From Rhodocyclaceae bacterium (GTDB lineage Bacteria; Pseudomonadota; Gammaproteobacteria; Burkholderiales; Rhodocyclaceae), in contig JANXRC010000146.1 of NCBI GenBank assembly GCA_025353195.1, forward strand, positions 998 through 64,997: a DNA stretch of 64,000 nt. Direction: 5' to 3'. Below are positions 21,037 to 39,716 of the stretch, piece by piece. Both the position numbers and the translations under genes were made by a program. The notes beneath the pieces were generated by a model. That model did no database searches, had not been told where the DNA came from, and saw only the letters and a list, made by a program, of their open reading frames with translations. Every line of letters starts with the position of its first letter. Position 1 is the stretch's first letter.

Positions 21037-22195
21037 ACTTGCCCAATGGCTGTCCAGGGATTTCCGCGGCTTCAATGTCTTCGGCTATATCACCCTGCGC
21101 GCGGTGCTGGCGACCATGACGGCGCTGGCGATCTCCTTCGTCTTCGGTCCCGCGGTGATCCGCTGGCTGACGGCGAAAAAGATTGGCCAGTCGGTACGCA
21201 GCGACGGCCCGCAGACCCATCTGGTCAAGGCCGGCACGCCGACCATGGGCGGCGCGCTGATTCTGATTTCGCTCGGCGTGTCCACGCTGCTGTGGGCGGA
21301 TCTCTCCAATCGCTTCATCTGGATCGTGCTGATCGTCACCTTCGGCTACGGCGCGGTGGGCTGGGTGGATGACTGGCGCAAGGTGGTCTACCGCAACCCA
21401 GACGGGCTGTCAGCCAGGGTGAAGTTCTTCTGGCAATCGGTCATAGGCCTGATCGCTGCAATCTATCTGGCATTTTCGATTTCGGCGCCCAACAACGAAA
21501 AGGTAGTGCAGCTGTTCTTCCAGTGGGTGTCGAGCGGGTTCACCCTGGAACTGCCGCAGCAGACTGCCCTGATCGTGCCCTTTTTCAAAAGCGTGACCTA
21601 CCCGCTTGGCATGTTCGGCTTCATCCTCCTCACCTACCTGGTGATCGTCGGCAGCAGCAATGCGGTGAACCTGACCGACGGCCTCGATGGTCTGGCCATC
21701 ATGCCGACGGTGCTGGTTGGCGCCGCGCTGGGCATCTTCACCTACGTCGCCGGCAATTCGGTGTTCTCGAAATACCTGCTGCTGCCCTATATTCCGGGTG
21801 CCGGTGAGCTGACGGTGTTCTGCGGAGCGTTGGCCGGTGCCGGCCTCGGCTTCCTGTGGTTCAATGCCTACCCTGCCGAAGTATTCATGGGCGACGTCGG
21901 CGCGCTGGCGCTGGGCGCCGCGCTGGGCGCGGTGGCCGTGGTCGCGCGGCAGGAGATCGTGCTGTTCATAATGGGTGGCGTATTTGTCGCCGAGACGCTG
22001 TCGGTGATGCTCCAGGTCGGCTACTTCAAGTACACCAAGAAGCGTTACGGCACAGGCAGGCGGATTCTCCTGATGGCGCCGCTGCACCATCACTTCGAGC
22101 AGACCGGGTGGAAAGAGACGCAGGTAGTGGTGCGCTTCTGGATCATCACCATCCTGCTGGTGCTGTTCGGCTTGTCGACGCTGAAAATTCGATGA
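21026..22195 (+). CDS. mraY: Phospho-N-acetylmuramoyl-pentapeptide transferase
   Basis: [38 protein letters not shown]. Confidence 0.98.
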
Positions 22196-23676
22196 GCGAA
22201 CTGAACGGCAAACACGTCCTCGTTCTCGGCCTCGGTGAATCGGGGCTGGCCTCCGCGCGCTGGTGCGCGCGGCAGCGCGCGCGGGTGCGGGTGGCCGACA
22301 CGCGTGCGGTGCCGCCGTATCTGGAAGAACTGCGGCGCCGTGTCGCCAGCGCCGACTTCCCGCTTGAATTCATTCCCGGCGAGTTCGACAAGGCGCTGCT
22401 CGACGGCATCGACCTGCTGGTGCTGTCACCGGGCCTCTCGGGCGGCCTGATGGTGGTGATTCATGCCCGCGCCGCTGGGATTCCGGTGCTTGGCGAAGTT
22501 GAATTGTTCGCCCGCGGTTTGCGCAGTCTTGGCTGCAGTGCGCCGGTGCTGGCGATCACCGGCACCAATGGCAAGACCACCACCACCGCGCTGACCGGGC
22601 ATCTGCTGCGCGCCGCGGGCAAGACGGTCGGCGTCGCCGGCAATATCTCCCCCGCGGCGCTGAGTGCGTTGATGGATGCGCTGGATGCGGGTGCCCTGCC
22701 GCAGATCTGGGTATTGGAGCTGTCGAGTTTTCAGCTGGAAACCACCGAGACGCTGAATCCTGTAGCAGCAACGGTGCTAAACATTTCCGACGACCATCTC
22801 GATCGCTACATCGATCTCGACGAGTACGCATCGGCCAAGGCCAGGATCTTTCAAAGCGCTGAGGGTGCGCCGGGCGTGCAGGTGCTCAACCGCGCCGATC
22901 CGCGCGTGTGCCGGATGGTGCTGGCCGATCGTCACATCATCAGCTTCGGCCTCGACGCACCGGCTGGCGAGGACGACTTCGGCCTGCGCCCGCAGCGAGG
23001 CGAGCCGTGGCTGGTACAGGGCGAGCGCTTTCTGCTGCCGGCCTCCGAGTTGCCGCTGGCCGGCTTGCACAATGCGGCCAACGCAATGGCGGCGCTGGCG
23101 CTGTGCAGCGCGCTCGGTTTCGATGCTGAAGCCTTGCTGCCGGCGTTGCGCAGTTTCCGCGGCCTGGCGCACCGGGTCGAGAAGGTGGCCGAGATCGGTG
23201 GTGTGACGTGGTACGACGATTCGAAGGGCACCAATGTCGGCGCCACGGTCGCCGCACTGAATGGCATTGGCGGCCAACTGGCCGCCCTGAATAGTCGCCT
23301 CTCTCCCACGGGGAGGGAGGGTGCGTCATTGACGTCTTGCGATCCGCAGGATCGCAAGATCGTGGTGATCCTCGGCGGCGACGGCAAGGGGCAGGACTTC
23401 ACGCCGCTGAAGGCAGCCGTGGCGAGGCATGCGCGCAGTGCGGTGATGATCGGCCGCGACGGGCCGCTGATCGAGAAGGCCATCGCCGCCGCCGGAGTAG
23501 CGATGGAAAGCGCCAACGATATGGAAGATGCCGTGCGTCGTGCCCGTGCGCTGGCGCGGCCGGGCGATGCCGTGCTGCTGTCACCGGCCTGCGCCAGCTT
23601 CGACATGTTCCGCAATTACGAACATCGGGCGCAGGCCTTCATCGATGCAGTGCGCGCACTGGAGGCCGGGGCGTGA
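22192..23676 (+). CDS. murD: UDP-MurNAc-L-Ala:D-Glu ligase, with an internal ~25-aa insert
   Basis: [52 protein letters not shown]. Confidence 0.97.
23295..23325. repeat. Intragenic palindromic element in murD
   Basis: TCG-CCTCTCTCCC-ACG-GGGAGGGAGG-GTGCG: 10-bp stem with one G:T pair; shares flanks with the element at 38437. Confidence 0.7.
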
Positions 23677-35084: not shown

Positions 35085-35126
35085 TGCCGCTTTGCTTTTC
35101 CCGCCCAATATGCGGTCGAGCACCCC

Positions 35127-35186
35127 ATGATCACCGGTTTTAGCTCCAGCGTAACGCCCGCTTGCGCAGGCATTGGCTTGCTCTGA
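35127..35186 (+). other. Candidate 19-codon uORF in frame with secA (MITGFSSSVTPACAGIGLL)
   Basis: ATG 35127 to TGA 35184-35186; begins with the same MITGF as SecA. Translation is not demonstrated. Confidence 0.4.
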
Positions 35187-35210
35187 AGCCCGTTTCTGAA
35201 CGACAAAAAT

Positions 35211-37937
<2,727 letters not shown>

Positions 37938-37938
37938 G

Positions 37939-39063
37939 GTGAGCCAGGAGCAGTGCCCGACCCTGACCGAGGATGCAAGCAGTCGCAATGCGGCCGTCTT
38001 CATCCTCGACCAGACGCGGCTGCCGCGCGAAGCGGTCATGCTGCGGCTGACCACAATGGAAGACGCAGCCCATGCCATTCGCGTCATGCAGGTGCGCGGC
38101 GCGCCCCTGATCGGCGCCACGGCAGCCTATGGTGTCGCGCTCGGCCTGGCGGACGATGTCAGCGATGCGCGCTTGCAGCATGTGATCGAAACGCTTGCCG
38201 CGACACGACCGACTGCCGTCAATCTGCATTGGGCGCTGGCGCGCATGCGTCGCGTGCTCCAAGAGTCGGCACTGGCGACACGGCGGGACATGGCCTGGCA
38301 GGAAGCGCGTGCCATCGCCGAGGAAGACAAAGAGGCAAACGCCGCAATTGGAAAGCACGGACTGCCCCTGATCGAGCGCATGCGGGACGCGAAGGTTCGG
38401 TCCAACCATTCCCTTGCGCAGGAAGGGCTGACTTCATCGCCTCCCCCGCTTGGCGGGGGAGGTCGGGAGGGGGTGCGCAGTTATTGTGACGGTGACGCAG
38501 TCAACGTCATGACCCACTGCAATGCCGGCCGTCTGGCGACCGTCGCGCATGGCACGGCCCTGGCGCCGGTCTATGCCGCGCATGGCGCCGGCTTGCCGGT
38601 GCACGTCTGGGTTTCCGAAACGCGACCGCGCAACCAGGGGCTGCTGACTGCCTGGGAACTGCGCGAGGCGGGCGTGCCGCATACGTTGCTGGCGGACAAT
38701 GCCGCCGGCCTGCTGTTGATGCAGGGCCAGGTCGATCTGGTGATCGTCGGCGCCGATCGCATTGCCGCCAACGGCGACACGGCGAACAAAGTCGGCACCT
38801 ATCTCAAGGCGCTTGCGGCGCGCGAGCATGGCGTGCCGTTTTATGTCGCCGCGCCAGTGTCGACCATCGATTTTGCCTGTTCCTCGGGGTCCGCGATCCC
38901 GATTGAAGAACGCGCTGCAGAGGAATTCGGTGCTTCAGTTGCCAACATGGATACGCCGGTGGTCAATCCGGCTTTCGACGTGACGCCGGCAGCTCTTGTC
39001 AGCGGTATCATTTCCGAGCGCGGCATCGCTTTGCCCGGCGCGCTGAGAAAGTGGAACTCATGA
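37939..39063 (+). CDS. mtnA: Methylthioribose-1-phosphate isomerase, with an internal ~30-aa insert
   Basis: VRGAPLIG, TRPTAVNL, THCNAG, ETRPRNQG, GADRIAANGDTANKVGTY, NPAFDVTP. Confidence 0.95.
   Translation: MSQEQCPTLTEDASSRNAAVFILDQTRLPREAVMLRLTTMEDAAHAIRVMQVRGAPLIGATAAYGVALGLADDVSDARLQHVIETLAATRPTAVNLHWALARMRRVLQESALATRRDMAWQEARAIAEEDKEANAAIGKHGLPLIERMRDAKVRSNHSLAQEGLTSSPPPLGGGGREGVRSYCDGDAVNVMTHCNAGRLATVAHGTALAPVYAAHGAGLPVHVWVSETRPRNQGLLTAWELREAGVPHTLLADNAAGLLLMQGQVDLVIVGADRIAANGDTANKVGTYLKALAAREHGVPFYVAAPVSTIDFACSSGSAIPIEERAAEEFGASVANMDTPVVNPAFDVTPAALVSGIISERGIALPGALRKWNS
38437..38477. repeat. Intragenic palindromic element in mtnA
   Basis: TCG-CCTCCCCCGC-TTG-GCGGGGGAGG-TCGGGAGGGGGTGCG: perfect 10-bp stem. 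Confidence 0.75.
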
Positions 39064-39716
39064 ATGCGATGACGGATGATCTTGCGGCCAAGGTACTTGC
39101 CACGGCACGGGCAATGAATGCCAGTGGCATCAATCGCGGCAGCGCCGGCAATGTCAGCGTGCGCTGTGAAGACGGCTTCATCATCACGCCGACCGGCATG
39201 GCCTACGAGGCCTGCAGCGCGGCGGACATGGTGAGAGTCGGCGCCGACGGTACGGCGGCGGGCCGCCGCAAGCCCTCCTCGGAATGGCGTTTCCATCGCG
39301 ACATCTATGCCGCACGGCCCGAGGCGGGTGCAGTGGTGCATACGCATTCGCCGTTCGCTACCGCGCTGGCCTGTCAGGAGCAGGGTGTGCCGGCTTTCCA
39401 TTACATGGTGGCGCGCTTCGGCGGTGCGGATGTACGCTGTGCGGCTTACGCCACCTTCGGCACCCAGGAACTGTCCGACGCCATGATCGGCGCGCTGGAC
39501 GGCCGTTGCGCGTGCCTGATGGCGCATCACGGCATGGTGGTGTTCGGTCGCGACGCGGACCACGCACTGGAACTGGCAGTGGAACTGGAAACCTTGTGCG
39601 AGCAATATTGGCGCGTGCTGCAACTGGGCGCGCCCAGGCTGCTGTCCGCCGCGGAAATGACGCGGGTGATGGCCAGGTTCGCGACCTATGGACAACAAGG
39701 CAGCCAGCCAGGCTGA
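39060..39716 (+). CDS. Class II aldolase, FucA-like (probable Ald2-type methylthioribulose-1-P aldolase)
   Basis: GSAGNVS, ITPTG, KPSSEWRFH, HTHS and AHHG zinc ligands; ATGA overlap with mtnA. Confidence 0.85.
   Translation: MNAMTDDLAAKVLATARAMNASGINRGSAGNVSVRCEDGFIITPTGMAYEACSAADMVRVGADGTAAGRRKPSSEWRFHRDIYAARPEAGAVVHTHSPFATALACQEQGVPAFHYMVARFGGADVRCAAYATFGTQELSDAMIGALDGRCACLMAHHGMVVFGRDADHALELAVELETLCEQYWRVLQLGAPRLLSAAEMTRVMARFATYGQQGSQPG

Follow-up and report, generated by a model that had tools for sequence, protein, structure and literature searches.

The DNA considered here (the window) is a stretch of 64,000 nucleotides from the assembly GCA_025353195.1 of a Rhodocyclaceae bacterium (contig JANXRC010000146.1, positions 998 to 64,997). 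Among its genes is mtnA, which codes for S-methyl-5-thioribose-1-phosphate isomerase. Within this open reading frame (ORF) lies a segment with two hairpins that is probably a GC-rich palindromic repeat, small and non-autonomous, of the type of the repetitive extragenic palindromic sequences (REPs) and their hairpin-forming doublets (REPINs), inserted in-frame and tolerated as a loop of the protein. Palindromic insertions within genes are a known kind of event; what is unusual in this case is the strong conservation of the hairpins.

The mtnA gene and its insert

The mtnA product matches the Pfam family IF-2B (E 2.6e-66) and scores 380.6 bits against the NCBIfam equivalog TIGR00512, for which the cut-off is 279. 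It is the product of the single IF-2B family gene of the genome, the assembly being 99.5% complete. The protein contains the motifs THCNAG (with Cys194) and GADRIAANGD (with Asp273), and these two residues are presumably the catalytic ones, as in the work on MtnA of B. subtilis. The first-pass annotation of this DNA had described a perfect 10-bp stem, a trailing GGGAGGGGG tract and a smaller stem, CCCTT-N7-AAGGG, and each of these is found where it had been placed; the "about 30 extra codons" seen ahead of THCNAG amount to 33 when the gene is aligned to the nearest empty alleles. The positions are given in Table 1, together with the other features discussed below.

Table 1. Features of the window and of its genome (positions are those of the window unless a contig is named)
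Feature	Position	Strand	Remarks
mtnA, S-methyl-5-thioribose-1-phosphate isomerase	37939..39063	+	open ORF, 374 aa
Net insertion in mtnA, codons D150-C183	38386..38487	+	34 codons in place of 1, i.e. 33 gained relative to the nearest empty alleles (protein and DNA alignments)
Repeat core, 71 nt: hairpin 1, linker, hairpin 2, G-run	38407..38477	+	covariance model R1, 93.4 bits, E 1e-20
Hairpin 1, CCCTT gcgcagg AAGGG	38411..38427	+	
Linker CTGACTTCATCG	38428..38439	+	equivalent of the GTGAC-nnn-GTCAC centre in canonical doublets (alignments)
Hairpin 2, CCTCCCCCGC-TTG-GCGGGGGAGG	38440..38462	+	perfect 10-bp stem
G-run GGGAGGGGG	38465..38473	+	partial third copy of the G-rich arm; conserved in the family
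Flanking hairpin TGACGGTGAC-GCA-GTCAACGTCA	38487..38509	+	3' arm formed by the conserved VNV(M) codons
Second in-frame copy, in murD (ORF 21856-23676)	23265..23325	+	R1, 30.8 bits, E 1.5e-5
Class II aldolase, FucA-like	39051..39716	+	downstream neighbour of mtnA; context, outside the element
RAYT-like Y1 transposase genes, ~245 aa	C200:2819-3148, C164:4429-4755 (L148, L149)		same genome (G000)

In the region of the insert MtnA reads ...SLAQEGLTSSPPPLGGGGREGVRSYC..., and EGLTSSPPPLGGGGR is an example of a peptide that the insert would yield; the encoded segment is rich in Pro, Gly, Ser, Arg and Glu, and its frame is free of stop codons. Hairpin 2 has no other match in the window at up to three mismatches (0.02 expected by chance). 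When positions 38370-38510 are folded as single-stranded DNA the energy is -35.4 kcal/mol, against -25.1 +/- 2.9 in shuffled sequences (z = -3.5). The flanking hairpin is found in empty mtnA alleles of the genus too.

The AlphaFold model of MtnA has a helix at residues 112-156, which is the last of the N-terminal domain, then no secondary structure at residues 157-187, and then a strand at 188-192, the first of the C-terminal domain, which leads to THCNAG. The predicted local distance difference test (pLDDT) score is below 50 at residues 158-167 and 173-182. In the solved structure of the T. maritima enzyme (PDB 1t9k) chain residues 147 and 148 are contiguous at the insert site, and residues 147-185 of the present protein (39 residues) have no counterpart there. 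The insert is thus predicted to be a disordered surface loop at the hinge of the two domains, and the earlier suggestion of a loop agrees with this low-confidence, unstructured segment of the model. Because the loop is predicted to be disordered and is in-frame, the insert-bearing enzyme is presumably still active; that this is the sole mtnA of the genome also argues for function. The course of events would be that one copy of the repeat arrived by transposition and landed at the hinge, and that the insertion survived because it brought a whole number of codons in a stop-free frame and a peptide disordered on the surface, so that the insert may be translated without harm.

Filled and empty alleles and the dispersed repeat family

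The region ahead of VNVMTHCNAG was compared among the 120 closest proteins, from Sulfuritalea and Rhodocyclales assemblies, and at the DNA level the mtnA alleles were compared in 80 species-level genomes. The proteins show three states. Type A, the allele of the window, reads ...SLPQEGLTSSPPPxGGGGREGVR...; type B reads ...GKxxGxPPxPLxGxGGD..., with a tandem duplication in some proteins and a further nested insert in one; and the insert-free state reads LIERIRG-DIDA-VNV. Type A is present in the window and at 7 other loci, type B at 13 intact loci, and the site is empty at 5 Sulfuritalea-level loci (L023, L027, L028, L031, L032) and in nearly all more distant orthologues. Partial deletions of the insert are seen in P0021 and L034. 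The first-pass annotation had named as a possible objection that all orthologues might carry a similar loop; since they do not all have it, this objection does not hold. The existence of a second, different insert allele at the same site had not been noticed from the window, nor had the nucleotide-level constraint on the stems that is described further below. In type-A alleles other than that of the window hairpin 1 has a stem of 7 bp, CCCTTCC-GCA-GGAAGGG.

The reading frame is intact in every intact allele and the length differences between alleles are multiples of three, which fits translation of the insert. In these genomes the length of MtnA varies from about 330 to 395 aa, a variation for which the repeat insertions account, and which is useful to know in annotation. 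The assembly of the window is fragmented (289 contigs), and an artefact of assembly or binning might be suspected on these grounds. However, the same insert is found at the same site in at least 7 other independent assemblies from different studies, which speaks against an artefact. The gene is intact on a contig of 78 kb, and an explanation of this kind has next to no probability. It is worth noting that in three assemblies (L062, L071 and L076) there are frameshifts in or beside the type-B insert. At least two of these assemblies (with contigs named 'tig...') look long-read, and the frameshifts probably reflect homopolymer errors within C/G runs and not real pseudogenes.

When a tree is calculated without the insert columns, the three kinds of allele (A, B and empty) are mixed with one another and 11 changes between them are needed; on the well-supported branches at least 4 changes are needed for A and at least 4 for B. 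As an example, when the type-A locus L011 and the type-B locus L017 are compared over 3 kb, most 60-nt windows show 91-100% identity, but the four windows at and beside the insert only 36-86% (gap-containing windows farther out dip too). The simplest reading would be that homologous recombination within the genus exchanges mtnA alleles.

To follow the repeat beyond mtnA a covariance model, R1, was built from the type-A alleles and two intergenic copies, with type B kept out as an independent test. When type-A, type-B and intergenic copies were aligned jointly (A1), hairpin 1 came out misaligned, and that alignment was dropped. In type B, R1 gives a minus-strand match at the insertion point, over the full length of the model in 12 loci (E 1e-5 to 0.012) and more weakly in L030 (E 0.08); no match was obtained in the type-B loci L022 and L026, nor in any empty allele. 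In local alignments type B scores 40 against the reverse complement of type A and 27 against the same strand, compared with a mean of 19.9 and a maximum of 33 in shuffles. Type B may also be one unit only, corresponding to the left half (left hairpin) of the type-A doublet on the same strand. The whole doublet is a quasi-palindrome, and because of this one insertion event at mtnA is not separable from two.

The proposal that the segment is an inserted DNA element has been borne out by the genome-wide search, which finds a dispersed repeat with copies at unrelated, unlinked places in this genome and in others of the genus. In the genome of the window the 71-nt core is present on contig C219, at the gshA-gshB junction, and on C44, between two other genes; single units are present on C37, between urtB and urtC, and on C114, upstream of cobA. 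Inside the window, the copy in murD is in a frame that differs from the one used in mtnA, and it has no G-run; the same murD site is filled in L095, a genome of another genus. R1 matches occur in 38 of the 41 genomes of the genus, at 1-15 per genome (draft assemblies may undercount repeats), and in 18 of 61 genomes of the family. Further in-frame copies are found in relatives, in genes for a MurE-type ligase, MurD, an HrpA-type DEAH helicase, CobT (in two genomes), UvrD and a dihydrolipoamide dehydrogenase (E3) that bears a lipoyl domain, the UvrD and E3 copies being of a related CCCTCTCCC variant. In-frame, stop-free copies are therefore present in several unrelated protein genes (mtnA, murD, murE, the DEAH helicase gene, cobT, uvrD and the E3 gene), and the Pro/Gly-rich loops in MurD, MurE, CobT, UvrD and HrpA are explained in the same way as the length variation of MtnA.

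Most copies of the family are intergenic, between co-directional genes. The element is roughly 70-100 nt long with a G+C content of roughly 70-80%. The canonical intergenic copy starts with a C-run, followed by a hairpin CCCCGCCC/GGGCGGGG, the centre GTGAC-nnn-GTCAC, a second hairpin CTCCCCCGC/GCGGGGGAG, three bases and GGGAGGGGG. It consists of two inverted units, so that R1 matches both strands at one place; each unit has a tag, (A)GTC(A/G)CC, a stem-loop of 9-10 bp, 2-3 bases and a G-run. A search of Rfam at E <= 1 with five copies and their flanks returned no known RNA family, only one chance snoRNA match, and a search of the literature gave no description of the family for Rhodocyclaceae or Sulfuritalea. 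In the window itself R1 has no match at 35085-35228, at the start of secA.

Inverted copies of neighbouring host sequence adjoin the element and vary in concert with the host arm. Type-B alleles have, just upstream of the insert, a perfect palindrome of 15-17 bp made up of the QHGLPLI codons and their complement, AAIHAA (loci L016-L033, L040 and L062). Four of its positions are doubly compensated, with residues altered on both arms (H/N with A/S, and others). Other hairpins of this sort span the VNV codons of mtnA and, in filled gshA-gshB alleles, the start codon of gshB. Such flanking copies (the type-B 17-bp palindrome, the VNV hairpin and the one at the gshB start) are what would be expected if the palindromes were made locally, through template switching during replication at a site prone to hairpins (quasi-palindrome extension), and L040, in which the QHGLPLI/AAIHAA palindrome is present and the GC-rich hairpin absent, fits this as well. 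But one and the same 71-nt layout, with a shared linker and G-run and 80-90% identity, recurs at loci that are not linked. Local template switching cannot yield one sequence at different places, and as an account of the element it is very unlikely.

Conservation of the hairpins

In 47 aligned matches to R1, 98.2% of the cells in the stem columns are paired, compared with 82.5% in shuffles and 58-69% when the partners are slid, although the alignment was fitted to R1 itself, which favours the pairing figure somewhat. Across the family both-sided changes are seen in 12 of 17 pairs (7 of 7 in hairpin 1), and in hairpin 2 98.7% of the cells are paired. Compensatory change has thus been shown to maintain both helices.

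Among the eight type-A species, the mean pairwise identity is 96% in stem 1 and 97.5% in stem 2. The loops are 79% identical, and the insert codons to the left and to the right of the core only 75% and 63%. Third codon positions are 65% identical in the rest of mtnA and 88% in the 71-nt core. Type-B alleles show a similar tendency. A recent spread of the whole allele is ruled out as the cause because the insert's own flanks are divergent. From these comparisons we infer that constraint or a repair bias acts on the pairing rather than on the peptide.

It could be argued that selection acts on the protein, in which the loop would be a functional linker rich in Pro and Gly, and that the palindrome is incidental. 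This would be in keeping with an insert that stays in-frame in all intact alleles, and with first and second codon positions that are about as conserved in the core (90.5%) as in the rest of the gene (91.8%). However, the third positions of the stems are conserved too, beyond the need of the protein, and the alternative alleles encode different peptides while empty alleles are common. In addition, the same DNA is found between genes and, in murD, in another frame, and the structural model predicts disorder. Selection for such a linker is most improbable.

A different explanation is that the host keeps the hairpins for a function at the level of the nucleic acid, in which case the repeat would be domesticated rather than merely tolerated. 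Such a function could lie, for example, in an mRNA structure by which ribosomes are slowed at the domain boundary, in a site of mRNA processing or stability, or in a site on the DNA for a topoisomerase or nucleoid protein. This is where the conserved stems and third positions of type A, next to fast-evolving loops and insert flanks, have to be weighed, together with the same pattern in type B and the pairing kept by compensatory changes across the family. The murD copy at the same site in two genera, the type-B coding palindrome that is kept despite amino-acid changes on both arms, and the position of the insert exactly at the domain junction can be read in the same way. On the other hand, there are empty alleles in close relatives of the same genus, partial deletions persist (P0021 and L034), and the copies are spread over many genes and intergenic sites that are unrelated and share no context. 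It is also the case that self-templated hairpin repair or GC-biased repair could conserve the stems without any function for the host. Domestication is unlikely on balance, though far from negligible, and tolerance of an inserted repeat is preferred to it.

A more far-reaching proposal can be put forward tentatively, with the weight of probability against it. It holds that this is a low-copy, transposase-less element selected for its structure as DNA or RNA within essential coding sequences (mtnA and murD), beyond a synonymous divergence that takes identity down to 65%; that doublet, single-unit and empty alleles recombine across species; and that the spread or upkeep of the element creates inverted copies of host codons, which then co-evolve as palindromes at an amino-acid cost. 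If true, this would mean a structure-dependent function or a self-preserving repair bias, neither of which has been described for intragenic REPs.

Mobility and likeness to known repeats

The presence of one sequence at unlinked sites speaks for mobility, and so does the variation in presence and absence at two loci, mtnA and gshA-gshB. In many genomes gshA and gshB overlap in an ATGA stop/start, and filled alleles have ATGA at both ends, a duplication of 4-5 nt. [quoted passage not shown]

Several observations weigh against an insertion of the REP/REPIN type that is merely tolerated. The ATGA duplication at gshA-gshB could be kept by selection, as it supplies a stop and a start codon, and at mtnA the candidates for a target-site duplication, GGT and CGGGA(C/G)G(C/G)G, are inconsistent across alleles, so that a clear one is not seen there. 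None of the 31 loci of the genus with a Y1 transposase gene (PF01797) has an R1 copy within about 1.5 kb at E <= 0.1, and several nearly complete genomes have copies of the element and lack a Y1 gene. The copy number is far under that of classical REPs. Lastly, a stem identity of 96-97.5% is unlike what a neutrally decaying selfish insertion would show, and a function or a bias may act. 

No parent insertion sequence (IS) for the element was found. The genome of the window has two Y1 genes that resemble REP-associated tyrosine transposases (RAYTs), scoring 67-68 bits where the RAYT equivalog has its cut-off at 80, and at these two loci R1 run without speed filters gives at best 12 bits (E 0.055). 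Each of the two genes is bounded by perfect 20-nt inverted repeats that are unrelated to the element, a layout known as a TIRtron, and these terminal inverted repeats (TIRs) contain GGGGTCAG and GGGGACAG, which fit the GGGGWSAS motif of TIRtrons (PMC3733652). The doublet centre GGGGTGAC fits GGGGWSAS as well, but a degenerate motif of 8 nt is too weak as evidence of a link.

The closest known repeats differ from the element in one respect or another. Di Nocera et al. (2013, PMC3733652) describe the GTAG and CGTC REPs as short GC-rich stem-loops that occur as singles or as inverted dimers able to form larger hairpins. In their survey, which counts Thauera among the hosts, most REPs lie between co-directional genes and a minority wholly within ORFs; a dimer then codes for 20-30 residues, and the gene is often a repair gene, for instance uvrD. 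CGTC repeats have no linked transposase, and the enzyme that mobilises CGTC-type REPs is unknown (PMC3733652). The present element is similar in its stem-loop units, inverted dimers and intragenic copies (uvrD included), and it resembles the CGTC type in having no linked transposase. The host Thauera is itself a member of Rhodocyclales. However, the tag is (A)GTC(A/G)CC / CTGAC here, and GTAG and CGTC are absent from the alignments. The element ends in a G-run instead of a CCA-type tail, and its stems are without the A/T first pairs of the CGTC families. There are 1-15 copies per genome, compared with tens to hundreds for REPs, which according to PMC2817692 usually exceed 100 copies per genome.

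The REPINs and bacterial interspersed mosaic elements (BIMEs), doublets that RAYTs mobilise (Bertels and Rainey 2011; Nunvar et al. 2010, PMC2817692), are alike in that two inverted units form a long hairpin and the doublet appears to recur as a unit. In those systems, however, the RAYT gene is flanked by its own REPs, whereas here the RAYT-like Y1 genes are never flanked by the element. With REPs and REPINs in general the element thus shares a stem-loop kept by compensatory change and inverted pairs of units, and it lacks the GTAG/CGTC tag, the high copy number and the REPtron, i.e. a RAYT gene flanked by the repeats. On account of these three differences it is set apart from the GTAG/CGTC REPs.

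Rickettsia palindromic elements (RPEs), the classic example of palindromic repeats within genes, are said, in work attributed to Ogata and colleagues in 2000, to lie in-frame in many housekeeping genes, to be translated, to occupy surface loops, and to be regarded as tolerated selfish DNA. The likeness to the present case is in a palindromic repeat placed in-frame in unrelated genes, at what is here a predicted loop position. Compared by description only, the element differs by its length of about 70-100 nt, its G+C content of about 70-80% and its free-living betaproteobacterial hosts, as RPEs are longer, AT-rich and come from reduced intracellular genomes. RPEs are also mentioned in PMC3733652. 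For Coxiella burnetii, PMC5896051 describes MITEs inserted in coding sequence, likewise small and non-autonomous, through which proteins gain in-frame peptide segments, but these have terminal inverted repeats. Taken together, the element is an intragenic palindromic repeat, REP/RPE-like, and a new family of a known kind. A case from free-living Betaproteobacteria thereby joins the short list of palindromic repeats within protein-coding genes. In one genus an empty site can be set beside two different filled alleles, partially deleted and tandemly duplicated forms, and a second element nested in the first, and this is a good natural series for studying the entry of repeats into genes, the tolerance of proteins towards them, and selection on the hairpins themselves.

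The nested element is a different one, of about 72 nt with two hairpins (GCGCAGCACTGCTGCGC ... GGCTTGCTGTGCAAAGCAAGCC), and is found in L184-L186 (gshA-gshB) and L022 (mtnA type B). In each case it lies after the 3' arm of hairpin 2 and before the G-run, so that its relative position and orientation are the same at two unrelated loci, and it looks as if it targets the first element.

Downstream of mtnA, the FucA-like class II aldolase scores under every equivalog cut-off. The pairing of mtnA with a class II aldolase is one that we take to belong to the dihydroxyacetone phosphate (DHAP) shunt, i.e. the salvage of methylthioadenosine and 5'-deoxyadenosine, and not to the full methionine salvage pathway.

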